A DNA stretch of 64,000 nucleotides from Flavobacterium sp. Lineage in GTDB: Bacteria; Bacteroidota; Bacteroidia; Flavobacteriales; Flavobacteriaceae. The notes beneath the pieces are model-generated. The model worked only from the letters and a program-made list of their open reading frames with translations. It was not told the DNA's origin and searched no databases. Position 1 is the stretch's first letter. Each line of letters starts with the position of its first letter. Of this stretch, positions 33,564 through 48,011 are shown piece by piece. Both the position numbers and the translations under genes were made by a program. The stretch covers positions 22,693 to 86,692 of the forward strand of contig NZ_JAYSPC010000028.1 of the NCBI RefSeq assembly GCF_043722275.1. The letters run 5' to 3'.

Positions 33564-33638
33564 CGGGGTGTAGCGTAGCCCGGTTATCGCGCCTGCTTTG
33601 GGAGCAGGAGGCCGCAGGTTCGAATCCTGCCACCCCGA
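33564..33638 (+). tRNA. tRNA-Pro(UGG)
   Basis: Acceptor CGGGGTG/CACCCCG, anticodon arm CCTGC-TT-TGG-GA-GCAGG, T-loop GTTCGAATC; -7 box TATATTTG at 33546-33553. Confidence 0.97.
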
Positions 33639-33671
33639 CAAAAGTCTTTTCATTTTCTTGAAAAGACTTTT
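33638..33671. terminator. Hairpin after tRNA-Pro (identical to the reverse complement of 38224-38257)
   Basis: acaaaagtcttttca-ttttct-tgaaaagactttt. Confidence 0.85.
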
Positions 33672-33709: not shown

Positions 33710-34033
33710 TCATTCTTTTTGCCTTAGCAATTTTATGATATCATCTTTTTCTTTTATTCGAAGTTCATACTGTTCAATAAATTTATGTTGTATTGTTATG
33801 TATTTTATTAAATCTTCTGGATCTGAGTCATTTGGTTTATTAATTTCTTCTCCAAAAAAGCTTGCAATGTTGGTTTTTAACAATTGAGCAATTTTTATAA
33901 TTTCGTCAGAAGTAAATTGTATTTCACCTTTTTCTCTTCTGCAATATTGTGATTGCTCTAATCTTAACTCATGAGCAATGTAACTTTGAGATAATTTTTT
34001 CTCCATTCGTATGGCTCTTATTTTTTTATTCAA
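33710..34033 (-). CDS. XRE-family HTH transcriptional regulator
   Basis: KIRAIRMEKKLSQSYIAHELRLEQSQYCRREKGE; C-terminal coiled coil; TTG start. Confidence 0.85.
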   Translation of the reverse strand: MNKKIRAIRMEKKLSQSYIAHELRLEQSQYCRREKGEIQFTSDEIIKIAQLLKTNIASFFGEEINKPNDSDPEDLIKYITIQHKFIEQYELRIKEKDDIIKLLRQKE

Positions 34034-34301
34034 TTTTCATAATTATAAAAAACCATTAATTTTATCAATATTATTTAGCAGAAATAGTGTATTAAAAACA
34101 AAGAGGACAGTTATTATTTTTCATACTCACTAAGAGATACTATTTTAATGATTAAACTTTAATCATTATGTGATTTGCACATTTTGTAAGAAAAATTAAT
34201 GTTGTTTATTTGAAATCTATTAACTGAAAACTTTTTGAATATTCAAAAGCGCTTTTGATAATTTGAGAGTCTAAGTATGTCGAATTTTAAAAACTTAATT
34301 T

Positions 34302-34655
34302 ATGAAAAAATTATTATTGACATTGTGTTTGTCGATGTTTGCTTCTGGAGCGTTCGCATCAGAATCCTTGGATTACAAAAAAATTGGAAACAGTAAAACA
34401 ACTGAAATCCAGCATTTTGAAAATGGCTTTGCCGTAATTTATGGCTGCTCAGTATATATAGCCTGGCATGATGGTCACGGAAGTTACTCCAATACATGGA
34501 GTTTCCCAAATGTTAGTTCTCAAAGTGGCTGCAATCAAATGATGAGAGAACTTTTAGCCGTTTTTCAGTCAGTTGAAGCACCAACAGCTTTTCCAGACGA
34601 TTTTATAGGTGAGGAGCCTCGTATTCGCTTCACTCCAGAAGAGGTGCAACCATAG
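34302..34655 (+). CDS. Small secreted hypothetical protein with two Cys and an acidic Pro-rich tail
   Basis: Sec signal MKKLLLTLCLSMFASGAFA; C49 and C77; first gene of a three-gene run. Confidence 0.8.
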   Translation: MKKLLLTLCLSMFASGAFASESLDYKKIGNSKTTEIQHFENGFAVIYGCSVYIAWHDGHGSYSNTWSFPNVSSQSGCNQMMRELLAVFQSVEAPTAFPDDFIGEEPRIRFTPEEVQP

Positions 34656-34714
34656 TTCAAAAACAAAACCTAAAATGCGATTTAGAATATTTCTAAATCG
34701 TATTTTATTAAAAA

Positions 34715-35494
34715 ATGAAAATGAAAAATTTTGCTTTTACAATAATTTTACTTTTTACAATTTCGGCGAAAGCTCAGGTAAAAAATGTAGTGATTGAATA
34801 CAACTTAAATGTATCTAATGAAAATTATGTACAGAAAAAAGTTATTACAAACTGCACAAAAAACATATCAATTTCAAAAACTTTTGCAAATAATTCTAAA
34901 GCAGGTATTGAATCTAATGAGCATACGAATTCAATATATATAAATGAAAAAGAGATTGACACTTATGAATCTGTTGATTTAGTGAGTAACAATATTATTT
35001 CTGTAGATAATATAAAAAACAGCAATTACAAAATCACTGAACAACTTCCAGTAATGAATTGGAAACTTTCAAAGGATAATGAAGTAAAAAAAATAGATAC
35101 TTTTATATGCAATAAAGCTTTTTTGAGTTTTAGAGGCCGCAATTACATTGCCTGGTACACTCCGTATGTTGCTTTGCCATTTGGACCTTGGAAATTTTAT
35201 GGTCTCCCTGGTTTAATTCTTGAAATATATGACACCAATAATAATTACCATTGGACAGTATCAAAAATAACATATCCTTCAACAAAAACATTTGATCTAA
35301 GCGTTTTAGATAAGCAAAACACAAAAGATATAACCTTAAAAGGATTTGTTGAAGAAATCGAAAAACAAAAGCAAATAATGTATGCCCGCATTATGAAAGT
35401 AATGCCACGTGGCACAACAATGGAGCAAGGAACTGATACAAGAACAAGTGTGGAATTAGTTTATGATTGGGAAACCGAAAAGAAAAACAAATAG
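34715..35494 (+). CDS. GLPGLI-family protein (TIGR01200-like)
   Basis: Signal peptide; FRGRNYIAWYT..PFGPWKFYGLPGLILE. Confidence 0.93.
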   Translation: MKMKNFAFTIILLFTISAKAQVKNVVIEYNLNVSNENYVQKKVITNCTKNISISKTFANNSKAGIESNEHTNSIYINEKEIDTYESVDLVSNNIISVDNIKNSNYKITEQLPVMNWKLSKDNEVKKIDTFICNKAFLSFRGRNYIAWYTPYVALPFGPWKFYGLPGLILEIYDTNNNYHWTVSKITYPSTKTFDLSVLDKQNTKDITLKGFVEEIEKQKQIMYARIMKVMPRGTTMEQGTDTRTSVELVYDWETEKKNK

Positions 35495-35499
35495 ATATT

Positions 35500-38178
35500 T
35501 TGAATATTAACCGTGTCCGAGTTTTGCTTTTTTTGCTCATGCAAATTTTAACTGTTAACTTTTTAAACTCTCAAACATCCATTTCCGGAATTGTTCGGGA
35601 TAAGGATTCTAATCCGGTTTCTTTTAGCAATGTATTTATTAAATCGCAAGTCAATAATTCTATAGTGGCTTTTACACGTACACTTAAAGATGGAAGTTAC
35701 GTCTTGGAGGTTGAAGAATCAGGTAATTATGAAATTAGTTTTACAGCAATATTATATAAACCAACTATATTCCAAATTGCTATAGAAACTGGTAAAAAAT
35801 ATATTCAAAATGTAATACTTCAGGACGAAACAACTTTTCTTGACGAAGTTGTAATCAAAACTGAAAAACCAATAACAGTAAAAACCGATACAATTGTTAT
35901 TAATGCAAAAGCATTTGCCCAAGGAAATGAAACTGTTCTTGAAGATTTATTGAGAAAAATACCCGGACTAAATATTTCTGAAAACGGAACGATTAAAGTT
36001 GGCACTAAAGAAGTTGAGAAAGTAATGATTGACGGCGATGATTTTTTTGAGCATGGTTATAAACTTCTCACAAAAAATTTGAACGCATCTACGGTTGATA
36101 AAATTGAGATTTATAAAAAATATTCAAATAACCGATTGCTAAAAAACATTGAAAATAGTGATAAAGTAGCGCTGAATCTTACTTTAAAAGATGAAATTAA
36201 ATCTCAATGGTTCGGAAACATGAGTTTAGGCTATGGCGTTGCATCAGAGAATAGGTATGATGTAAGAACTAATTTGATGTCGTTTGAAAAAAAAGCAAAA
36301 TTTTATGCAATAGGAAATCTTAACAACGTAGGAGTTGATGCCGTAGGAGATATAAATTACATCATCAGACCTGTGAATTTAGATGGAATAAGCAGTATTG
36401 GAGACGATGAAAACTCTGAAACATTGCTCAGTTTAAACACTTCAAAACCCAATTTAAAAGAAGAAAGAACGAATTTTAATAATGCCGAATTAATATCCTT
36501 AAATTCTATATTTACGATTTCTTCAAAAGTAAAATTAAAAGTTATAGGATTTTATAATTCAGATAAAAATGATTTTTTCAGAAAAGGAATAGATGAATAT
36601 CATTTTGAAAATACTGCGTTTACTAATTTTGAAGATTACAATTTAAGTAAGAAAAAAAAGATTGGCTTTGCAAAAATTAATTTCAATTATGATATCTCCA
36701 GTAATGAATCGTTTGAATTTATAAGTAAATACAGTTTAGAAAACGGTAATACAAACACAAATTTAATTTTTAATGAAGAAAAATCCTGGGAAAAACTTAA
36801 TGAAAAAACACAACTCATCGACCAAAAAGCGGTTTATACCAATAGATTTAGAAGCAATAAAGTTTTAATTTTTACAGGAAGAATAATAAATGAAAAGGCA
36901 CCGCAAAATTATTACAATAACGTTTTTCTTTTCAACGATATATTACCAGGTGGCGTTACTGCAAATAACGTAAGTCAGGGAAGTAATGACAAGCTGAATT
37001 TTTTGGGTTTTGAAACTCATTTTTTTGATAAAAAACAAAAAGGAAATCTTTTAGAATTTAAGGCAGGATATGAAAACAGGCAAGATTATTTTAATTCGGA
37101 ATTAGAGTTTTTAGAGAACGATAATAGTATTATTGCTCCCGCAGATTATGCTAATAAAGTAAATTTTGGCACTCAGGATATTTATTTTAAATCAAAATAT
37201 AATTATTTTTTCAGAAAATTTGCAATAGAAGCCAAGGTCGAATTACATGACTTTATTTCAGATCTGAAGACTACTGAAATTGTTGAAAAAAATAATAATT
37301 TATTCATAAATCCATCTTTGGTTTTAAGTTGGGAAATTAACCAAAACAATAAAATTAGCACTTCGTTTTCTTATAATACAACAAATGCCAAAATTTTAGA
37401 TGTCTACAACGGGTATGTATTGACAAGTTATAAAAGCTTTCAAAAAGGAACAGGACAATTTAATCAGCTACAATCAAATGTATTTTTTCTAAAATATGGA
37501 TTAGGAAACTGGGAAAGTAAATTTTCATCAAATGCCTCTATTTATTATTATAAAAATTTTGACTTTTATTCTACAAATGCCGTTATTCTACAAAATTATT
37601 CTCAGTTAGAAAAAATTATAATTAAAAACAGATCTATGTTTAGAGCAGATCTTGATATGAGTTATTTTTTTAGCGATATTTCATCTACTTTAAAAGTTGA
37701 GGCAAATTATTCTAAAAGCAACTATAAAAACATTGTAAATAATGAATTAAGAGAAGTAGAATCAGGAATTACAGTTTCAAGTATAGAAATAAGATCAAAT
37801 TTTAAAGGTTTTTTAAATTATCATTTGGGAACTAAATGGACTATAAATGAAATTAGAACATCGGATCTTAATAAAAATACTGACAATCTCACCTTTTTTG
37901 ATCTTTTGCTAAGCTTTAATAAAAATTTAAATGCTGAATTTCAGACTGAAAGATATCATTTTGGCAATTTAGAGGCTAGCAGTAGTAAATATTATTTCCT
38001 TGATATTAAAGCCAATTATATATTTAAAAAAAACAAACTTTCTTTTTCATTATCGAGTAATAATTTATTCAATACTAAAACTTTTAGGCAGTCATATATA
38101 AGTGATGTCGTTACTTCGAAAACAGAATATAGGATTCTTCCAAGATATGTTCTTTTAAAAATGGATTATAAATTTTAG
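35500..38178 (+). CDS. Large outer-membrane beta-barrel protein with N-terminal carboxypeptidase-regulatory-like domain and plug-like region
   Basis: ISGIVRDKDSNPVSFSNV, EDLLRKIPG..IKVG..VEKVMIDGDDFF, LSSNNLFN, terminal YKF; TTG 35500 avoids overlap with GLPGLI (track start 35467). Confidence 0.85.
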   Translation: MNINRVRVLLFLLMQILTVNFLNSQTSISGIVRDKDSNPVSFSNVFIKSQVNNSIVAFTRTLKDGSYVLEVEESGNYEISFTAILYKPTIFQIAIETGKKYIQNVILQDETTFLDEVVIKTEKPITVKTDTIVINAKAFAQGNETVLEDLLRKIPGLNISENGTIKVGTKEVEKVMIDGDDFFEHGYKLLTKNLNASTVDKIEIYKKYSNNRLLKNIENSDKVALNLTLKDEIKSQWFGNMSLGYGVASENRYDVRTNLMSFEKKAKFYAIGNLNNVGVDAVGDINYIIRPVNLDGISSIGDDENSETLLSLNTSKPNLKEERTNFNNAELISLNSIFTISSKVKLKVIGFYNSDKNDFFRKGIDEYHFENTAFTNFEDYNLSKKKKIGFAKINFNYDISSNESFEFISKYSLENGNTNTNLIFNEEKSWEKLNEKTQLIDQKAVYTNRFRSNKVLIFTGRIINEKAPQNYYNNVFLFNDILPGGVTANNVSQGSNDKLNFLGFETHFFDKKQKGNLLEFKAGYENRQDYFNSELEFLENDNSIIAPADYANKVNFGTQDIYFKSKYNYFFRKFAIEAKVELHDFISDLKTTEIVEKNNNLFINPSLVLSWEINQNNKISTSFSYNTTNAKILDVYNGYVLTSYKSFQKGTGQFNQLQSNVFFLKYGLGNWESKFSSNASIYYYKNFDFYSTNAVILQNYSQLEKIIIKNRSMFRADLDMSYFFSDISSTLKVEANYSKSNYKNIVNNELREVESGITVSSIEIRSNFKGFLNYHLGTKWTINEIRTSDLNKNTDNLTFFDLLLSFNKNLNAEFQTERYHFGNLEASSSKYYFLDIKANYIFKKNKLSFSLSSNNLFNTKTFRQSYISDVVTSKTEYRILPRYVLLKMDYKF

Positions 38179-38216
38179 ATAATGTGAATTTGCATGAGAT
38201 GTCTTTTGAACTGGAA

Positions 38217-38262
38217 ACACAACAAAAGTCTTTTCAAGAAAATGAAAAGACTTTTGTTGTGT
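38217..38262. terminator. Bidirectional terminator, perfect 20-bp stem
   Basis: acacaacaaaagtcttttca-agaaaa-tgaaaagacttttgttgtgt. Confidence 0.88.
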
Positions 38263-38278
38263 CTAATTCTCTCTATAA

Positions 38279-38677
38279 TTAAACAGTTTTCAACATAGCA
38301 ATTACTTCTATTTCAATAAAGATATCGCTTCTAAACAATCCTTTAACTTCTAAAAGTGTACTTGTTGGTGGCTCATCAAGGTTGATAAACTGATCTCTGG
38401 CTTCTCTATATCCTGCAATTTGAGAAATATCCGAAGTAAAAATTCCCAGTTTTACAATATCATTTAAATTGGCGCCGCATGTTTCTAAGATGTTTTTAAT
38501 ATTTTCGAAAATTTGAATTGTTTGGGTTTTTACATCATTTCCAACTAATTCTCCTTGTTTATTAAACGGAATTTGCCCGGAAAGCATAATCATTTTCTGA
38601 TTCTCAAACGGAATAACAACTGCTTGAGATAAACCTTTAATATTTAATACTTTTTCTGAATTTTTAAATTTTGACAT
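38279..38677 (-). CDS. RidA/YjgF family protein
   Basis: SGQIP, QTIQIFENIKNILE, PPTSTLLEVKGL..IEIEVIA. Confidence 0.9.
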   Translation of the reverse strand: MSKFKNSEKVLNIKGLSQAVVIPFENQKMIMLSGQIPFNKQGELVGNDVKTQTIQIFENIKNILETCGANLNDIVKLGIFTSDISQIAGYREARDQFINLDEPPTSTLLEVKGLFRSDIFIEIEVIAMLKTV

Positions 38678-38840
38678 AATATCTATAAATTAATTTTTAA
38701 CAAAGATCTGTTACATTCTTTATTTTGATTTTTCTTAAAATGTCTTATTTCATGACTATTTGTTTCAATTACAACTTATTTACATTTGTAAAAATCAAAT
38801 CAGTGGTAAGAAAATTTATACATTCGTAAAAAAAAATATC

Positions 38841-39737
38841 ATGAACGTTATAAAGCAAACGGGAGATCAGGATTCATATCCGGGAACACATATTATTATA
38901 ACATCTGATAAAATTGGTAAAACAGAAATTTGCCGACAACAACATAAAACTCCATTTCATAAACAGAATTTGTTGAAAGATCATTTTTTGTTATTTGCTG
39001 TAGAAGGTTTAAATGAATTGCAGATTGGAAATCAGCAATTTTCATTAAAAAAAGGTGAAATGTTATTAATAAAAAAAGCGACTTACGTTGAAATTGTAAA
39101 AACCGGAGATCCTTTAAATAATTTCATGTACGAAAGTGTGTCTTTTTCACTTAAGAAAGATATAATTATCGATTTTATTAAATTAATAGAAATGGATAAT
39201 TATCAAGAAGCAGGAAATTATGATAAAGCAATTATTCACCCATATGGAGAACGTTTAAAATCATTTCTCACCTCGTTGAAACCTTATTTTGAAGATAACG
39301 AAACCATAAAAACGGGATTATTCAAACTAAAAATATTAGAATTACTTTATGATCTTTCACAAGCAAATCAATCATTTTTGAATGAGTTAATAAACATCGA
39401 TCGCAATGAAACTAAAGATTTATTGAAAACCATAGAACAACATTATCTACAACCTTATTCTCTTCAGGAACTTGCCTATATTTCCGGAAGAAGCTTATCG
39501 AGTTTCCGCAGGGAATTTGAATCTTTGTTTCATACAAAACCTGCAAAATGGATTCAGGAAAAGCGATTAAATAAAGCAAAGGAATTGTTTCTTACCACTC
39601 AATTAAAAATTGCAGATGTTTGTGATGAAGTTGGATATGAAAACGTTTCGCATTTTTCACGCCTGTTTAAAAGTCATTTTGGATACAATCCAAGTGAAAC
39701 TAAAAAAACAGATAAATTGAAAATTAAGGTTGATTAA
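38841..39737 (+). CDS. AraC-family regulator (ExsA-like N-terminal domain), divergent from ridA-like gene
   Basis: ELAYISGRSLSSFRREF; VCDEVGYENVSHFSRLFK; ATG 38841. Confidence 0.9.
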   Translation: MNVIKQTGDQDSYPGTHIIITSDKIGKTEICRQQHKTPFHKQNLLKDHFLLFAVEGLNELQIGNQQFSLKKGEMLLIKKATYVEIVKTGDPLNNFMYESVSFSLKKDIIIDFIKLIEMDNYQEAGNYDKAIIHPYGERLKSFLTSLKPYFEDNETIKTGLFKLKILELLYDLSQANQSFLNELINIDRNETKDLLKTIEQHYLQPYSLQELAYISGRSLSSFRREFESLFHTKPAKWIQEKRLNKAKELFLTTQLKIADVCDEVGYENVSHFSRLFKSHFGYNPSETKKTDKLKIKVD

Positions 39738-39791
39738 AATAATGTACAGGATTTTAAAAACAGGTATTAAGACATGTTTTACTTAATTAAA

Positions 39792-40652
39792 TCATCCCTT
39801 TTGATTGAGCAATCTAAACTCAGAAGGAGACAAACCTATAGCTTTACGAAATGATCTTGTGAAATAAGAATAGTCACTGAAACCTAATTTGTAAGCAATT
39901 TCTTTTACATCCATATCACTATAGTACAATAATCTTTTGGCTTCAATGAATATTTCCTGTTGAATCCAATAACTCACGGTTGAACCTGTAACCTCCTTTA
40001 TTACCTCATTAAGATAACCTGTTGATACATTAAGTTTTGATGCATAAGCAGACGGACTTTTTGTATTATGAATATTAATTACAAGCAGATTTTTAAACTG
40101 TTTAGCAAGCTCAGCCTGCCTGTTACGCGTATTTGATGTTGTTTCTAAAGAATTATAAGTACTGGCTGCCATCCCTAAAAATGACTGAACAAGCGTGTGG
40201 ATAATTGAAATATAGAATCTATCTCCTTGTCGCAGAACAAATTCGGTTTGTAATACTCCTAGTAAGCTTTTATATTGAGTTAACTCATATTCTGACAATT
40301 TACATGGCAGTTGTAAATTAAGCCTAAATTCAAAAACTCCTCGAAAATCCGTATGAATCAACGAGGTGTCTACAGCAATAAACCATCCCTCGGCATTATT
40401 TGCCTTTATTCGGGAATGGATTTGTGAAGGTAATATATAATATAGGTGTCCGGCAGTAATTAAAACATCCTGAAAATCAATCTTTAATGTTCCTGAACCT
40501 TTTGTTAACAAAAAAAAGATATAATGATCATCCCTATGAGCAATATCATAATCCCTCTCTTGCTGAAGTTCATTTTCAGGTTCGAAAATTTTAATTTGCA
40601 AACCTGTATTTGTCTTTTTTTGTAACTCATCTATTGGAATGTTTTTCATCAA
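39792..40652 (-). CDS. AraC-family transcriptional regulator
   Basis: HRDDHY cupin; YASKLNVSTGYLNE; KEIAYKLGFSDYSYFTRSF. Confidence 0.92.
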   Translation of the reverse strand: MMKNIPIDELQKKTNTGLQIKIFEPENELQQERDYDIAHRDDHYIFFLLTKGSGTLKIDFQDVLITAGHLYYILPSQIHSRIKANNAEGWFIAVDTSLIHTDFRGVFEFRLNLQLPCKLSEYELTQYKSLLGVLQTEFVLRQGDRFYISIIHTLVQSFLGMAASTYNSLETTSNTRNRQAELAKQFKNLLVINIHNTKSPSAYASKLNVSTGYLNEVIKEVTGSTVSYWIQQEIFIEAKRLLYYSDMDVKEIAYKLGFSDYSYFTRSFRKAIGLSPSEFRLLNQKG

Positions 40653-40664
40653 TACAAAATATCT

Positions 40665-41651
40665 TTATTTATTTAATTTCAATAGTTTATCAGCATTTCC
40701 ATGAGCAATCTTTAACAGTTGCTCTTCCGGAAGGTCGATAGCATTCAAAAAATCGATACCCATTTCGTTTGTACTGAACGGATAATCTACAGAAAACATA
40801 ATGTTGTCGATACCAAAAGTATCTAAAGCAATTTTTAGCGGTGGCTGGGTAAAAAAACCACTTGTGGTAATATGAACCTGCTGATGAAAAGTATCCGTTA
40901 GCGATCGTTGGTTGGCGCCGCCATTGCCAGGCTTGAATGCCCGTTCTGATCGTGCCATCATCATGGGTAACATTTCTCCCATATGTCCTATAATTAAATT
41001 TAATTTGGGATATTGATCAAAAATACCCGAATACAGCAAGCGTAAAACATGAAGCGCAGTTTCTGAATGCCAACCCCAACCGTAACAAGCCAAAGCTTCT
41101 GCCATGCCTGAATGATTTGGTAATCCGTTATAATAAATATCCGATACTCCTTTTGGCGGCAATCCCGGATGAAGATATATAGGAACTCCCAACTTCTCGG
41201 CGCGCTCAAATATCGGGGCAAATTCAGGCTGATCCAGAAACTTTTCCTGAGTAAGTCCGCGAATCATAGCGCCACGAAAATGATATTCGGTCACAGCACG
41301 TTCTAATTCATCTGCGGCCGCAATTGGCGCTGTCATTGGCAAATGGGCAAAAGCTGTAAACCGATTTTCAAAACCGGATATTCGTTTAGCAATCATATCA
41401 TTGTATTGCCTTGCAAAAGCAGGACCGTCTTTTGGGCTTAATAAATTAGCCCCTGAACTATCAACAGATAATACCTGGGTGCTAATGCCATTCGCATCCA
41501 TAGAATCCAGGCGAGCTCCTGTTATATCAGCCAATTTTGCCGAAAGCTGTTGCATTCTTTCTGATTCTCCAAACCCACCTAAAGCTGCCTTAGGAATTTG
41601 ACCTGCCATTTCAGGAAATGAAATATGTTCTTCAAGAGTTACTATACGCAT
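40665..41651 (-). CDS. Amidohydrolase_2-family protein (non-oxidative aromatic acid decarboxylase/ACMSD-like)
   Basis: LEEH, IYLHP, GHMGE, FSVDYPF. Confidence 0.88.
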   Translation of the reverse strand: MRIVTLEEHISFPEMAGQIPKAALGGFGESERMQQLSAKLADITGARLDSMDANGISTQVLSVDSSGANLLSPKDGPAFARQYNDMIAKRISGFENRFTAFAHLPMTAPIAAADELERAVTEYHFRGAMIRGLTQEKFLDQPEFAPIFERAEKLGVPIYLHPGLPPKGVSDIYYNGLPNHSGMAEALACYGWGWHSETALHVLRLLYSGIFDQYPKLNLIIGHMGEMLPMMMARSERAFKPGNGGANQRSLTDTFHQQVHITTSGFFTQPPLKIALDTFGIDNIMFSVDYPFSTNEMGIDFLNAIDLPEEQLLKIAHGNADKLLKLNK

Positions 41652-41704
41652 ATTATTCTTTTTTTTTAAAATCCATTTTTCAATGACTTAATAATTAGTT
41701 CTGG

Positions 41705-42423
41705 TTACCAGGGAGCTTCACCTCCGTCTTTAAAGAACTTTCCGGTTATACCCAAATTAGATTCTATTGCCAATTTTACAATTGGATGAGCGCCTTGTTC
41801 CGGCGTTTTCTTCCCTGAAAGTTATTTAGCTCAGTAGCAGTAAATCCCGGTGTAATACTATTAACACTAATTCCTTCTTTCCTAAGTTCGCTGGACAACA
41901 TTAAAGTTACCGCATTTATTGCTGTTTTTGAAGATCCATAAACATGAAAATTACTACGACTGGAATTTTCTTCCGGATCTGCAAGTAAAGTAAGAGAGCC
42001 AACCTCGCTTGAAACGTTAATAATTGACGGATTCAATGATTTTTTTAAAAGAGGAAGAAATTCCTGAATGGTTTGTAAAGTCCCGAAAACATTTGTATCA
42101 AATATCTTTTTAAGATTATCAATATTACAAGTAGAAATATGAGGTTCATCTCCGGCAATACCCGCATTATTGATTAAAATATCTAAGAAAATAGTTTTAG
42201 ACTCTAATTCTACCCTGGCTTTACGGATAGAATTACCATCTGCAATATCTATCAAAATACCCTCTACGTTTTCCAGCCCAATATCTTTTAGTTTCTTAAC
42301 TGCTTCAAGTCCGCGTTCCTGATTTCTATATCCCAAATACACAAAATAACCCAATTGTGCTAATTGCAAGGCTGTTTCAAAACCTATTCCTTGATTTGCT
42401 CCTGTAATCAATACTTTTTTCAT
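41705..42423 (-). pseudogene. Short-chain dehydrogenase/reductase with a -1 frameshift near the 3' end (or assembly indel)
   Basis: TGANQGIG, NNAG, YGSSK; the missing tail TPEQGAHPIVKLA..TGKFFKDGGEAPW* lies in another frame after the A4 run at 41806-41809; ATG 42423. Confidence 0.8.
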
Positions 42424-42447
42424 AAAAATAGCCTTTAATTTTTTAAA

Positions 42448-42514
42448 CAAAGGTATTGGTAACACATCGAACCGTTACGAGATATTCATGGAATTTGTAG
42501 GACAATTCACGGAA
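42448..42514 (-). promoter_or_regulatory. -7 box TACCTTTG (42448-42455) with upstream TTCAYGGAA repeats 21 bp apart (42485, 42506)
   Basis: Read directly upstream of the SDR operon. Confidence 0.55.
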
Positions 42515-42681
42515 CATCATTTTCAATACGTTTGATCCAAAATATTCTATTTAAGAAAGTAACATGAGAAAAATCGAAATTTTCAATAATTGATAAAAAA
42601 TTGTTTCAAGCATGAAATTTCAAACAATTTAAAAACTATCGTAGAATAATAAACTCCCTTTCAAAATTCAGTTTCTATTAA

Positions 42682-42900
42682 TACTTGTATACTCGTTGGG
42701 TGTATTAAACAAAACATATATTTCGACGCGGATTTGACGGATTCGTTATCACGAAGACACAGATTTACACGGATCTTCTTTAAATTCTATATAAAAATCA
42801 GCGAAAATCTGCGTTTTTGCAAAGCAAATCTGTTTTATCCGCGTTCTAATTTATACAGTTTGTATTTTTAACTTAATTGCACCCAACGGGTTACTTGTAT
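42682..42900. mobile_element. MITE-like 201-bp element (42691-42891) with imperfect terminal inverted repeats and flanking 9-bp direct repeats
   Basis: TACTTGTAT at 42682-42690 and 42892-42900; ends actcgttgggtgtattaa / ttaattgcacccaacgggt; internal palindrome 42724-42845. Confidence 0.5.
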
Positions 42901-43042
42901 GAAAAATTGTATTTTTGTTTTATACATTTCAGTAATCCAGTTTATTACATTTTTCAATATTACTTTTATTGGTATCAAAAAGTAATGACGATGTATTTTA
43001 CCTTTTTATCAATTTATTATTTGTAATTATTATCTTTGAGCT

Positions 43043-43468
43043 ATGAGCACATTAACAAAACCAAGTCATATAGGGCGAAAAATTAGCCGTATTCGTGAAC
43101 TGAAAGACATGAAACAAGAAGCATTGGCACAAGCTTTAGGAACTAACCAACAGGCAATTTCGGCTATTGAAAACAGCGAAACAATAGATGATGAAAAACT
43201 TGCTGATGTCGCAAAAGCACTTGGCGTAACGGTTGAAGCAATCAAAAATTTCTCTGAAGAAAATATGATTAACTATTTCAATACTTTCACTGATAATGAT
43301 TTCAGCAACAGTCAAGGTGCTAATTTTGGACATGTCAATGCATGTACATTTAATCCGCTTGATAAATTAATTGAATCTCAAGAGGAAATCAAAAAGCTTT
43401 ACGAACGTTTATTACAAGCCGAAAAAGATAAAATCGAGTATCTGGAAAATATAATAAAGACGAAATAA
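43043..43468 (+). CDS. XRE-family HTH regulator (Bacteroidota type with C-terminal NPxDK coiled coil)
   Basis: HIGRKISRIRELKDMKQEALAQALG..FNPLDKL..LYERLL. Confidence 0.9.
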   Translation: MSTLTKPSHIGRKISRIRELKDMKQEALAQALGTNQQAISAIENSETIDDEKLADVAKALGVTVEAIKNFSEENMINYFNTFTDNDFSNSQGANFGHVNACTFNPLDKLIESQEEIKKLYERLLQAEKDKIEYLENIIKTK

Positions 43469-43494
43469 TCTTTGTAAAAACATACAATTACGAC

Positions 43495-43520
43495 AAAAGA
43501 GGTTCGAAAGAGCTTCTTTT
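43495..43520 (+). terminator. Terminator with GAAA loop
   Basis: aaaagaggttc-gaaa-gagcttctttt followed by a T-run. Confidence 0.7.
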
Positions 43521-44059: not shown

Positions 44060-44236
44060 AAATAATCTTAAACGCTTCTAAAAACCGAATAAAAATTACA
44101 TATAAATCTTAAAACATCACGAAATATTCTATTTATTTTAAAACGGTTTCCATTTTGGCTTCTTTTTAAGCAAAAAAAACTTACCGCATTAAAATGTTAT
44201 TATATTTACCACTTATAACACAATACTTATTTGTTT

Positions 44237-46798
44237 ATGGAAGGTTTTCTTTTAGCTGCGTTATTTGGCTTTTTAATCTATATTTCTAATAAAATCAAAG
44301 GTCGTTTTGATCATCTTGAAAATGATATTCAAAAACTGAGTAAAAAACTAGATCTTTTAAAAGCAACAGAAAAACCTATTGAAATTATTCCGGTTGCTCC
44401 AATTCCTGCTGTTAAAAAAGAAGAATTTAAAATAACTCCTGATCAATCAAACGATGCTACTTTTGAACCTGCGAAAACAGAAATTGCAGCACAAGTTATT
44501 GATGAAAAAATTACAGATGAACAATTAGAAAAAATTGCATTATCATCTCATATTGAAAACATAGGAAAACCTGTTGAAATCAAACCGATTGAAAGCAATC
44601 CAGTTGAACCAAAACCTGTTCAAAAACCAATTATTCCTGCTGAACCCGAAAAATCATTCTGGGAAAATTTCAAAGAACAAAATCCTGATTTAGAAAAATT
44701 TATTGGAGAAAATTTAATCAATAAAATTGGAGTTTTAATTCTGGTTTTAGGAATTAGTTATTTTGTAAAATATGCCATCGACAAAGACTGGATCAACGAA
44801 CCTGCACGTGTAGGAATCGGCGTTTTATGTGGCGTCCTGGTTATGGGAATTGCTCATAAATTACGTAAAAATTACGCAGCTTTTAGTTCTGTAATTGTTG
44901 CCGGCGCCATTGCTATTTTCTATTTTACGATTGGGATCGCGTTTCATGATTATCATTTATTCAATCAAACCGTCGCCTTTAGTATTATGGTGATTATTAC
45001 GGCTTTTAGCGCTTTAATATCCTTATCCTACAACCGACTCGAATTAGCGGTTCTGTCCTTAATTGGCGGATTTGCAGTTCCGTTTATGGTCAGTACCGGC
45101 GAGGGAAATTATGTCGTGCTGTTTACATATATCATTATTTTAAACATCGGAATTTTGGCTTTAGCCTATTATAAAAAATGGAATCTCGTTAATATTCTCG
45201 CCTATATATTTACCGTACTTTTATATGGCGCGTGGTTGTCTAAAGAATTAAGTTCAGGCAAACCCCATTATTTAGGCGCGCTTATTTTTGGTTTTGCCTT
45301 TTATTTTATTTTCATTTTAATGAATATTATAAACAACATTCGATCAAAAGGAGAATTTTCTAAAACTCAGCTTACCATTTTAGCCAGTAATACATTCTTA
45401 TTTTATGGCGCAGGAATGGCAATTTTAAGCCATTATCATCCGGAATTAAAAGGTTTATTCACAACAATTCTTGCCGTTTTAAATTTAGTTTATGCCTGGA
45501 TTTTATACAAAAAATTCGACCTCGATCAAAAAGCCGCTTATTTATTAATTGGCTTGACATTGACTTTTATAACATTGGCAATTCCTATTCAGTTTGAAGG
45601 CAATTATATTACTTTATTCTGGGCTGCCGAAGCTGTTTTGTTAGTATGGCTTGCACAAAAATCAAAAATTTCAAGTTATCGATTTGGTTCTTTAGCCGTT
45701 CATATTTTAATGGTTTTTAGTCTGATAATGGATTGGAACAAATATTACAAAGGCACTTTACAGCTTAATATTATTATTAATCCAATATTTATTACAGGAC
45801 TTTTTGCTTCGTTTTCATTATTTGCCGTTTGGTATTTATTAAAAAACGAATCCGAAGACACAAACGAAAACCCAACTACATTTAATACCCTATTTAATAC
45901 GGATAATTACAAAGAATATCTGTTAGGAACTGGACTTTTAATAACCTATTTAACAGGTTTATTTGAAGTTATATTTCAGTCAAACAGCCATATTCCAAGT
46001 ATTTACAGCTCGATTTCATTACCAATATTATATCATTTAATATTTTCGGTAATATTTTCTACTTTCATGATCAGGAAAAAAACCGAATCAGCATATCAGG
46101 CTGCAACTTTAATAATTATTGCAAATATTGTTTTGTTTGCCTTTTGGTTTTCGAATTATCCATTTTTCGAACACGAGGAAATTATGAGTTCAGGAACCGG
46201 AAAGTCAATCGCATTTTATATACATTACATTTCATTGATTATCACGATTTATTCAGGATATCAATTGTTTTTAATCAGCAGGAAATTCAGTTTTTCGTTT
46301 TTTAAAAGTCCTTATTTTATGTGGATTGTTGCTTTTTTCATCATATATATCGCCAGTTCAGAGGTTATGCTTCACGGACTTGTGTTAATGAATTCTGCCA
46401 TCACGCCTGAGGACATACAAGCAAGCCCAATGTTTGCGAGTTATAAAACAAACTTGCCGTATTTACGTGATTTTATTGCCGATGATTTTATTGGACTTGC
46501 AAGAACAAAAATCATCAAAACAGGATTTCCGGTGCTTTGGGGAATTCTTGCTTTTGTATTTTTAATTATCGGAATAAAAAAACAATACAAATCACTTCGA
46601 ATTATCGCTTTGACTTTACTTGGATTAACTATTTTAAAATTATTTTTATACGATATCAGCAATATATCCGAAACCGGAAAAATCATATCTTTTATCCTTT
46701 TAGGAATTTTAATTTTGATTATATCTTTTGTATATCAAAAAATCAAAGTTTTAGTTATTGATGAAAACAAGCCACAGGAAGACAATGAAACTAAATAA
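44237..46798 (+). CDS. DUF2339-like polytopic membrane protein
   Basis: LEKFIGENLINKIGVLILVLGISYFVKYA; many TM helices; C-terminal KLFLYDI..KIISFILLG. Confidence 0.85.
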   Translation: MEGFLLAALFGFLIYISNKIKGRFDHLENDIQKLSKKLDLLKATEKPIEIIPVAPIPAVKKEEFKITPDQSNDATFEPAKTEIAAQVIDEKITDEQLEKIALSSHIENIGKPVEIKPIESNPVEPKPVQKPIIPAEPEKSFWENFKEQNPDLEKFIGENLINKIGVLILVLGISYFVKYAIDKDWINEPARVGIGVLCGVLVMGIAHKLRKNYAAFSSVIVAGAIAIFYFTIGIAFHDYHLFNQTVAFSIMVIITAFSALISLSYNRLELAVLSLIGGFAVPFMVSTGEGNYVVLFTYIIILNIGILALAYYKKWNLVNILAYIFTVLLYGAWLSKELSSGKPHYLGALIFGFAFYFIFILMNIINNIRSKGEFSKTQLTILASNTFLFYGAGMAILSHYHPELKGLFTTILAVLNLVYAWILYKKFDLDQKAAYLLIGLTLTFITLAIPIQFEGNYITLFWAAEAVLLVWLAQKSKISSYRFGSLAVHILMVFSLIMDWNKYYKGTLQLNIIINPIFITGLFASFSLFAVWYLLKNESEDTNENPTTFNTLFNTDNYKEYLLGTGLLITYLTGLFEVIFQSNSHIPSIYSSISLPILYHLIFSVIFSTFMIRKKTESAYQAATLIIIANIVLFAFWFSNYPFFEHEEIMSSGTGKSIAFYIHYISLIITIYSGYQLFLISRKFSFSFFKSPYFMWIVAFFIIYIASSEVMLHGLVLMNSAITPEDIQASPMFASYKTNLPYLRDFIADDFIGLARTKIIKTGFPVLWGILAFVFLIIGIKKQYKSLRIIALTLLGLTILKLFLYDISNISETGKIISFILLGILILIISFVYQKIKVLVIDENKPQEDNETK

Positions 46799-48011
46799 AT
46801 TTATACTCTTATTATTTATTGCAAACCTTTCGTTTGGGCAATATCAAACGACCGGAAAATTAAAAAAGGTTGCAGAAAATGGTTTTCATGAAATCATTTT
46901 GTCGCCGGAAATCAGGTCATATTCAAAACAGGATTTGAGCGATATCAGAATTTTTGATTCCAAAGGAAATGAGATTCCGTATTTTATCCAAAGCGATAAT
47001 ACAGTTTCAAAAAATACTTTTGAAGAATATGCAATTGTTTCAAAAACGGTTTCCCCGAAGAAAAGCACTTCGATTATTATTGCAATTCCGCCAAATAAAA
47101 GCAACAATCAGCTTTCGCTTTTTATTGCTAATTCTAATGTCGAAAAAAAGTATTCGATTTCCGGAAGTGACGATCAAAAAGAATGGTTCGGAATCTCTGA
47201 CGCACAATATTTATCTGATTTAAACAGCTCTACAGAAACAAGCGTTGTAAAGAATATTTCCTATCCGTTAAGCACATATCATTATTTAAGAATTGATTTT
47301 GATGATCGAAAAACGCTTCCGATAAACATTTTGAAAATTGGAAATTTCACCACACAATTGCCCAGAAGTTTAGTGCAGGAAACTGTTCCGAAAAAATCTG
47401 TAACGACCGAAATTCCTTCAGAAAAAGAAACTCAAATTCATGTTCTTTTTGATGCGCCACAAGTTATCAATCAAATTACTTTTGAAGTTTTAAAACCTAC
47501 CTATTATAATCGTAGGGCTATTTTATACAAAAAAGTAAAACGAGATGTAAAAAGAAAATCGCAGATATTTGATGAAGAAATCATTTCTTTTGAACTGAAT
47601 TCGAACACAAAAAACATATTTACAATTCCTGAGATATTCGAAAAGGAATTCTATATAAAAATTGAAAATCATGACAATCAGCCTTTGTCAATTTCAAAAA
47701 TAAAATACGATCAAAAGTTAATTTCTGTAATTGCAGATTTAAATATAAATGAAAGTTATATCCTGAAAACAGGCAATAAAAACCTGACGGAACCGGAATA
47801 TGATCTTTCGAATTTTAAAAATAAAATTGCCGCTATTTTACCACAAACATTCGTTTATGATATTGAGCAAAGAACGAATGCAAAAAGTGAAATTCAGAGC
47901 AAATCATTTTGGCAACAACCCTGGTTTATGTGGATTTGCATAATCCTGGGCGGAATTACAATTCTATTTTTTACGGCGAGCTTAGTAAAAGATTTAAAAA
48001 GAAAGAATTAA
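46785..48011 (+). CDS. Exported, C-terminally anchored protein (DUF3999-like partner of DUF2339)
   Basis: Signal after ATG 46785; DLSDIRIFDSKGNEIPY; IENHDNQPL; PEYDL; C-terminal TM; start overlaps the upstream stop. Confidence 0.7.
   Translation: MKLNKFILLLFIANLSFGQYQTTGKLKKVAENGFHEIILSPEIRSYSKQDLSDIRIFDSKGNEIPYFIQSDNTVSKNTFEEYAIVSKTVSPKKSTSIIIAIPPNKSNNQLSLFIANSNVEKKYSISGSDDQKEWFGISDAQYLSDLNSSTETSVVKNISYPLSTYHYLRIDFDDRKTLPINILKIGNFTTQLPRSLVQETVPKKSVTTEIPSEKETQIHVLFDAPQVINQITFEVLKPTYYNRRAILYKKVKRDVKRKSQIFDEEIISFELNSNTKNIFTIPEIFEKEFYIKIENHDNQPLSISKIKYDQKLISVIADLNINESYILKTGNKNLTEPEYDLSNFKNKIAAILPQTFVYDIEQRTNAKSEIQSKSFWQQPWFMWICIILGGITILFFTASLVKDLKRKN

Follow-up and report, generated by a model that had tools for sequence, protein, structure and literature searches.

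A mobile four-gene cassette of Flavobacterium joins a small secreted protein and a GLPGLI protein to a TonB-type outer-membrane barrel: a candidate protein export module

We analysed a four-gene cassette of ~4.5 kb that lies in a 64,000-nt stretch of a Flavobacterium sp. genome (assembly GCF_043722275.1, contig NZ_JAYSPC010000028.1); this whole stretch is referred to as the window, and the coordinates below are positions in it. In the cassette, a gene for an XRE-family regulator is divergent from a run of three genes coding for a small secreted protein, a GLPGLI-family protein and an outer-membrane (OM) barrel (Table 1). An earlier inspection of the same DNA, made from the letters alone and called here the sequence-only reading, had noticed a tRNA-Pro gene, the divergent XRE gene and the tight run of three, with a gap of 59 bp between the small open reading frame (ORF) and the GLPGLI gene and of 5 bp between the GLPGLI and barrel genes, and this layout proved right throughout. 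The second gap is counted to a TTG start codon at 35500; with an alternative TTG at 35467 the barrel gene overlaps the GLPGLI gene. The low GC content that had been pointed out was likewise borne out (0.25-0.31 over 34-39 kb vs about 0.33 elsewhere). Sec signals are present on the small protein, the GLPGLI protein and the barrel alike, and all four genes are under purifying selection (dN/dS of 0.16 for the XRE gene, 0.20 for the small gene, 0.09 for GLPGLI and 0.11 for the barrel).

Table 1. Features of the cassette and of the island around it (window positions)
Feature	Positions	Strand	Description
XRE-family helix-turn-helix (HTH) regulator	33710-34033	-	107 aa; PF01381 HTH_3 E=3.3e-7
Palindrome ATGTG-N5-CACAT	34168-34182		Divergent control region; from five-cassette alignment; candidate operator
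16-bp perfect palindrome TCAAAAGCGCTTTTGA	34243-34258		~45 bp upstream of small gene; candidate XRE operator or 5' leader element
Small secreted protein gene	34302-34655	+	117 aa; signal peptidase I (SPI) signal
Hairpin between small gene and GLPGLI	34671-34707	+	17-nt arms, 94% complementary, then T-run; candidate attenuator/terminator
GLPGLI-family protein gene	34715-35494	+	259 aa; TIGR01200 E=1.5e-37; PF09697
Outer-membrane barrel gene	35500-38178	+	892 aa counted from TTG 35500
tRNA-Pro (TGG)	33564-33639	+	ARAGORN; left border of strain-specific island
tRNA-Pro native terminator hairpin, copy 1 of exact 32-nt repeat	33640-33671	+	13-bp stem, T-run
Hairpin copy 2, inverted	38217-38262		Extended 20-bp stem; between barrel gene and ridA; splits island into two blocks
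Remainder of island	38279-43500		ridA, two AraC regulators, amidohydrolase, SDR, second XRE; not cassette part (Pfam)

The intact four-gene unit recurs in at least five other Flavobacterium genomes (loci L025, L026, L028, L029 and L030). Wherever the context is readable at these loci, the small ORF is strictly linked to the other cassette genes, and the XRE gene is conserved in all cassette homologues. The neighbourhoods are unrelated. In L028 the cassette lies inside an integrative and conjugative element (ICE), between a TraG-type coupling protein and a relaxase/MobC/ParA/DUF3408 group; in L026 it adjoins MobC and a serine recombinase; in L025 it stands between an epimerase gene and tyrS. 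The DNA similarity between genomes spans exactly the stretch from the XRE stop codon to the barrel stop codon (33716-38184), which agrees with the description of the locus by the sequence-only reading as a self-contained module. Found in unrelated surroundings with sharp ends of similarity, the four genes of the cassette travel as one horizontally mobile, selected unit.

The small protein carries a 19-aa SPI signal peptide, MKKLLLTLCLSMFASGAFA, followed by SE at the start of a 98-aa mature form. The mature protein consists of a variable linker, a folded core (residues 35-91) and a disordered, acidic, Pro-rich tail with 7 D/E and 5 P among 34 residues; the export signals, the mature length, the Cys pair C49/C77 and the tail had each been read correctly from the sequence. 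Both cysteines are invariant across the family. The core is the most conserved segment of the entire cassette (83% amino acid identity, pN/pS 0.16), and the linker and tail drift almost neutrally (pN/pS 0.6-0.7). Despite this fast evolution of the disordered tail, a motif P-[IV]-R-[FY]-x-P-E-E within it (34590-34652) is kept in 8 of 9 family members and may be a docking or threading element. A structural model of the protein has a confident core (pLDDT about 80-87) folded as a four-strand beta-meander plus a helix; C49 lies where strand 3 begins and C77 where the helix begins, and the tail is disordered. A Foldseek search of this model against the PDB returned no significant structural neighbour, and no Pfam, NCBIfam or PADLOC family matched the protein. 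Neither a cofactor- or metal-binding motif nor a lipobox nor a type IX secretion system (T9SS) C-terminal domain was found in it; the Sec/SPI signal is its only sorting signal. The protein has about ten homologues, at 57-76% identity and all from Flavobacterium; searching the mature part exhaustively against 1.8 billion representatives brought in just two further small proteins. Matches of the mature part to large proteins (P0012 and others) were discarded as spurious, the subjects being eukaryotic CUB or HYR repeat proteins. Since the core is conserved under purifying selection and the ORF is linked to the cassette in every homologue, the small ORF is a real gene. The cassette of Flavobacterium chilense (L030, 5777-10545) is a variant with two tandem GLPGLI genes, and its small protein has five Cys in the mature part, including a CC pair, with the YGC…W…G…S core retained.

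The XRE protein matches the HTH_3 model PF01381 with 30.7 bits (gathering score, 23 bits); against the RstR and DicA subfamily models it scored far below the cut-offs, and no subfamily was assigned. The control region between the divergent genes contains the two candidate operators of Table 1, both conserved in five cassettes. In an alignment of five cassettes, whose control regions are 57-80% identical overall, the core AAGCGCT.TTG of the TCAAAAGCGCTTTTGA palindrome is invariant. A further palindrome, TTTTGAATATTCAAAA (34233-34248), overlaps it in the window. The sequence-only reading had counted the XRE regulator among the parts of the system. This holds for the Flavobacterium cassettes but not generally: ten divergent ORFs at other GLPGLI loci had no HTH domain, and a divergent HTH regulator was accordingly rejected as a general companion of the trio. 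The XRE gene is specific to this Flavobacterium subfamily.

The junction between the small gene and the GLPGLI gene is occupied by a strong hairpin (minimum free energy -17.4, z -9.5). At other loci, 32 of 35 small-to-GLPGLI junctions also contain a strong stem-loop (median z -5.7), typically a perfect stem of 10-17 bp followed by a T-run, and none of six GLPGLI-to-GLPGLI junctions does. The sequences of these hairpins are unrelated from locus to locus and their position is constant. Operons laid out in this way typically make the product of their first gene in abundance and attenuate the accessory genes behind it; the small protein would therefore be made in excess, which fits a cargo better than a subunit needed 1:1. 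In lantibiotic or pilin operons, a hairpin after the highly expressed first structural gene attenuates the accessory genes. The cassette resembles them in its small structural gene, its strong stem-loop with T-run and the accessory and transport genes that follow, and differs from them in having a TonB-dependent-transporter-like barrel for transport and neither a modification enzyme nor an ABC exporter nor an usher.

The GLPGLI protein is a bona fide member of its family, as is the locus of the known pairs of GLPGLI and CarboxypepD_reg barrel: it matches TIGR01200 with 129.6 bits (cut-off, 50 bits) and PF09697 (Porph_ging) with 25.1 bits (cut-off, 25). It has an SPI signal, MKMKNFAFTIILLFTISAKA, followed by Q, and the motif YGLPGLILE; the signature residues G163, L164, P165, G166, L167 and I168 are present, and G, L, P and G of the signature are invariant in the GLPGLI alignment. 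Among the GLPGLI N-termini surveyed, 71 are of the SPI type and 2 are lipobox-like, and the protein is not a lipoprotein. A GLPGLI profile aligned with residues 12-178 of 4R4Z, the N-terminal domain of PNGase F-II from Elizabethkingia (E=5e-5; 4R4Z/4R4X; PF22252); PF22252 also matches the GLPGLI orthologue of L025, and a further PDB entry, 7ZGN, is named 'Glpgli family protein'. In PNGase F-II the domain, which has no established role, is joined to a glycosidase; the GLPGLI protein here differs in being a stand-alone exported protein in a barrel operon. In the literature that we searched, the GLPGLI family appears in tables only and is annotated solely as 'function unknown'.

The barrel protein is built, in order, of a CarboxypepD_reg beta-sandwich, a TonB-box-like segment LDEVVIK (residues 114-120), a plug-like domain and a large beta-barrel whose last residue is F. 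The sequence-only reading had proposed an OM barrel of ~890 aa with carboxypeptidase-regulatory and plug-like domains. The first of these domains is matched by PF13620 (38.1 bits vs 32.3) and PF13715 (34.6 vs 32.2); the Pfam Plug model PF07715 reached 13.3 bits over residues 140-217 (E=0.12), below its cut-off of 23.9, and TonB_dep_Rec (PF00593) and OMP_b-brl_3 (PF14905) gave no match even at E<=10. In sequence and profile searches of the PDB the N-terminal domain alone was matched, its profile aligning with the N-terminal extension of the SusC homologues 8aa4 (E=2.1e-8) and 9hfj. An AlphaFold2 model computed from 66 sequences (pLDDT 88.2, pTM 0.76) had 214 Foldseek matches in the PDB at E<=1e-3. 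The top 50 are all TonB-dependent transporters (TBDTs), among them FhuE, FauA, PfeA, FecA, PhuR, Cir and BtuB, at E from 4.8e-17 to 2e-14 and probability 1.00; the TM-scores against these neighbours are modest (0.32-0.52). Directly after the N-terminal domain, the TonB-box-like pattern L-x-E-V-[VI]-[IV] has its L, E and V conserved in 55-59 of 66 barrels; in the window protein it reads LDEVVI (residues 114-119) and aligns with LDEVVV of a SusC homologue. Of the family barrels, 50/66 end in Phe. The model has a plug-in-barrel TBDT fold with a SusC/Oar-like N-terminal extension. The earlier description of the barrel therefore stands for the OM location and the domains and needs correcting as to class, the fold being that of transporters which canonically import.

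To place the cassette among its relatives we surveyed 80 GLPGLI loci from Flavobacteriia, Cytophagia, Sphingobacteriia, Chitinophagia, Saprospiria and Bacteroidia with our own ORF caller and a crude signal-peptide rule; tblastn with a Flavobacterium-centred GLPGLI alignment supplied these loci as its best matches, and they are not a random sample. A small ORF was defined as 45-160 aa with a signal peptide, on the same strand and within 300 bp upstream, and 82 GLPGLI runs had enough upstream sequence to be scored. A homologous barrel follows 67 of these 82 runs, in line with the earlier remark that GLPGLI proteins often stand beside such barrels. An upstream small signal-peptide ORF precedes 43/82 runs and 8/334 control genes (Fisher odds ratio 45, p 1.4e-27). 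The small ORF, whose linkage to GLPGLI and barrel elsewhere had been made a test of the sequence-only reading, is thus linked to them at the loci of its own subfamily and, as a structural class, across Bacteroidota. Each run holds between one and three GLPGLI genes and at most two small ORFs. In five loci (L033, L047, L051, L082 and L103), small-GLPGLI pairs are interleaved before a single barrel, and these would therefore be cognate pairs that share one conduit. At L019 (7478-8456, G058) and L023 (4910-5626, G021), two or three small signal-peptide proteins with 2, 4 or 5 Cys stand before one GLPGLI-barrel pair; several different small proteins can therefore precede one GLPGLI. The only other GLPGLI gene of the genome under study (G000:C145; L024, 3195-6884) encodes a protein of 301 aa with a Lys/Glu-rich insert and is followed by a barrel of 895 aa; upstream of it there is no small signal-peptide ORF, the neighbour being a divergent secreted protein of 240 aa.

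The surveyed small proteins resemble that of the window in composition and architecture. Their mature forms are acidic (median pI 4.7; 75% below 6 vs 34% of other proteins), and they usually contain exactly two Cys, with a median spacing of 28 (interquartile range 26-29), which is also the spacing in the window protein. A spacing of 22-32 is found in 90% of them and in 26% of control ORFs (p 9e-18). When mature regions were compared by hhalign, a unit of Cys, hairpin, Cys and helix aligned with both cysteines in register (probability 71%, E 3.7e-5). An iterative hidden Markov model of the full-length small protein that united 53 small ORFs was rejected as a sign of homology because it had grown through similarity of the signal peptide; run again without that peptide, the search kept 7 close relatives only. 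Between lineages the small proteins are hypervariable (mean distance 0.92) while the barrel is conserved, and GLPGLI and barrel co-vary (r=0.50).

In our judgement, the small protein, the GLPGLI protein and the barrel are very probably functional partners. We read the locus as a horizontally mobile, self-regulated copy of a widespread three-part envelope module of Bacteroidota in which the small protein is the cargo and the barrel its exporter, and give this reading as a whole a probability of roughly 0.4. According to it, the XRE protein would bind the conserved palindromes and gate the promoter in front of the small gene, and the junction hairpin would attenuate transcription, leaving the small protein in large excess over GLPGLI and barrel. 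The small protein would enter the periplasm and form a C49-C77 disulfide; its cognate GLPGLI protein, with a bowl-shaped domain, would capture it and hand it to the barrel, and the barrel, energised by TonB, would move it out to the cell surface or into the medium, as Oar does for PopC. The direction of transport is the part that we hold with less assurance than the partnership, export being a possibility at somewhat under even odds.

The model for this last step is known from Myxococcus xanthus, in which secretion of PopC requires Oar, a TBDT with a CarboxypepD_reg N-terminal domain, an architecture that dominates in Bacteroidetes (PMC6434023). The likeness lies in an OM TBDT with a CarboxypepD_reg extension and a TonB box (here a TonB-box-like motif), that would carry a Sec-exported or periplasmic protein over the outer membrane or help it to cross. 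There are also differences: the Oar family meets the Pfam Plug and TonB_dep_Rec models and the barrel here does not; PopC is a large protease encoded elsewhere, whereas the candidate cargo here is a disulfide protein of ~100 aa encoded directly upstream; and the cassette has a dedicated GLPGLI partner, with export being what we infer.

Several points weigh against export of the small protein by this route. TBDTs canonically import, and to our knowledge Oar-PopC is the only precedent of export by a TBDT. The junction hairpin may end transcription completely, and the small gene would then form a transcription unit of its own. Our crude caller found no small ORF in about half of the GLPGLI-barrel operons surveyed, L024 among them, and GLPGLI and barrel apparently can work without one, unless the ORF was missed. 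The kinship of the window protein with the wider class of small proteins appears in a moderate hhalign alignment and a shared architecture, and HMMER searches that omit the signal peptide do not leave the close small-protein family. The sequence-only reading had expected the small protein to co-evolve with its partners; at phylum scale this was not seen, the Mantel correlation of small protein with GLPGLI being r=0, a value that is uninformative since the small-protein distances are saturated.

The same barrel could work in the opposite direction, as a conventional TonB-dependent importer for which the small protein would be a ligand-binding 'phore' or a signal to be taken up again, or, together with GLPGLI, an accessory of a nutrient uptake complex. 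Such an arrangement would be analogous to hemophore-receptor, SusC/SusD and BtuB/BtuG pairs. The TBDT fold and the conserved TonB-box-like motif are what one would expect of it, as is the co-variation of GLPGLI with the barrel, and operons such as L024 that have no small ORF look like complete transporters with optional accessories. With SusC/SusD, BtuB/BtuG and HmuR/HmuY the cassette shares a TonB-type barrel beside a dedicated partner gene and an N-terminal domain that matches SusC homologues (8AA4, 9HFJ). Partners of the SusD, BtuG or HmuY type are nutrient-binding lipoproteins of the cell surface that sit on the barrel as a cap. The GLPGLI protein differs from these in its SPI signal and its want of a lipobox, and the cassette differs in that a presumably abundant small protein precedes GLPGLI behind a candidate attenuator; the large excess implied by the hairpin would be unusual for a receptor accessory. 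Moreover, the small protein has a Sec/SPI signal only, so that the barrel encoded with it is its sole evident way out of the periplasm, it has neither a cofactor- or metal-binding motif nor a structural neighbour that would suggest a ligand, and it varies extremely between lineages while the barrel does not. We therefore consider import or recapture rather unlikely.

A second alternative makes the small protein an antibacterial effector released by the barrel, with GLPGLI as its periplasmic immunity protein and a competitive advantage for the bearer of the cassette. Carriage on an ICE and in other mobile contexts, duplication of small-GLPGLI pairs as units before one barrel, the extreme divergence of the small proteins and a repressor-type regulator of the cassette's own would all suit a bacteriocin, as would, partly on general knowledge, the order of structural gene, hairpin and accessory genes. 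Within the subfamily, however, the core of the small protein is strongly conserved, under purifying and not diversifying selection, and in their acidity the mature proteins depart from most membrane-active peptide bacteriocins. Searches with the small protein found neither a toxin domain nor a similar structure, and PADLOC reported no system at the locus; the XRE protein gave generic HTH matches only, and there was no other match to a conflict system. At ~250 aa and with a conserved fold, GLPGLI is also large for an immunity protein. An effector with its immunity protein is an unlikely description of the cassette.

The gene order and size classes, namely a subunit gene, a hairpin, a periplasmic protein of ~250 aa and a plugged barrel of ~900 aa, also mirror, partly on general knowledge, operons for chaperone-usher assembly; GLPGLI would then be the chaperone and the barrel the platform for a small protein that polymerises or serves as an adhesin. 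This is very improbable: the structural neighbours of the barrel are TBDTs and not ushers, GLPGLI has its kin in the N-terminal domain of PNGase F-II and not in Ig-fold chaperones, the beta-meander and helix of the small-protein model are complete and lack no strand, operons with several GLPGLI genes are unlike single-chaperone systems, and no usher or chaperone family is among the Pfam matches at the locus. Finally, the view that the small ORF is a spurious or unrelated neighbour of the GLPGLI-barrel pair, for which one might cite its want of a known family and the runs that lack such an ORF, is effectively refuted by the strict linkage in every homologue found, the enrichment over controls, the conserved Cys spacing and junction hairpin, and the purifying selection on the core.

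The position of the cassette directly after tRNA-Pro, as given by the sequence-only reading, is correct and reflects an island at an integration hotspot. In comparison with the closest relative, G158, the window has a strain-specific insertion of ~9.8 kb from 33681 to about 43500, after which synteny resumes. The 32-nt hairpin that follows the tRNA gene is present as exact inverted copies at 33640-33671 and 38224-38255, the sole two in the 5.47-Mb genome. Relatives keep a hairpin after tRNA-Pro, with a loop sequence that differs between species; the identity of the two copies here down to the loop implies, on sequence comparison, a recent duplication or gene conversion. The flanking inverted hairpins were considered as ends of the cassette and rejected: since the hairpin is the native tRNA-Pro terminator in relatives and the other cassettes have no terminal inverted repeats, the hairpins are part of the insertion hotspot and not of the cassette. 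Behind their intact tRNA-Pro, relatives have one to three tandem partial tRNA-Pro 3' ends, each followed by the hairpin; these are scars of repeated site-specific integration, and tRNA-Pro is an integration hotspot in relatives. Such 3' remnants were seen at L110, L112, L113, L115, L118 and G122:C5:157541-157866. The window has no second tRNA-Pro 3' fragment and no integrase among the ORFs of 38-51 kb, and the island here is not a recognisable self-mobile element.

The second block of the island (38279-43500), which is absent at the site in G158, looks like a small catabolic or detoxification module; one of its AraC regulators is ExsA_N-like and its amidohydrolase is an Amidohydro_2 enzyme. 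Further on, at 44231-48011, lies a pair of DUF2339 (855 aa) and DUF3999 (417 aa) genes that is present in G158. Because G122 and G129 have other DNA in place of this pair, the variable zone after tRNA-Pro is larger in some relatives.

The sequence-only reading had suggested that the system was undescribed, and we did not find the trio in the literature searched. There, descriptions of GLPGLI-barrel pairs mention no upstream small protein, junction hairpin or mobility as a unit; what is new is the pair of partners that goes with the TonB-type barrel. To this the present analysis adds a Flavobacterium subfamily packaged with an XRE regulator, its carriage by conjugative elements, the island at the tRNA-Pro hotspot, and quantitative support for the junction hairpin, the Cys spacing and the pattern of selection. 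A wider proposal, which we regard as doubtful, is that the trio constitutes a phylum-wide TonB-powered route of protein export in Bacteroidota, distinct from type IX secretion, in which GLPGLI proteins would act as cognate periplasmic carriers and hypervariable small disulfide proteins would be secreted as effectors, signals or surface coats; the Flavobacterium version would then be a cassette that has acquired a repressor of its own and is carried by conjugative elements. No function is known for GLPGLI, a large family specific to Bacteroidota, and a conserved operon gives it a testable role; the partner barrels, for their part, are among the many TonB-type proteins of Bacteroidota for which no substrate is known. 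If the barrel does export, TonB-dependent protein secretion would extend from Oar-PopC, the one case known so far, to an entire phylum with gut, oral, fish-pathogenic and environmental members, and the small proteins would be a new class of secreted miniproteins; if it imports, they would represent a new kind of transporter accessory.

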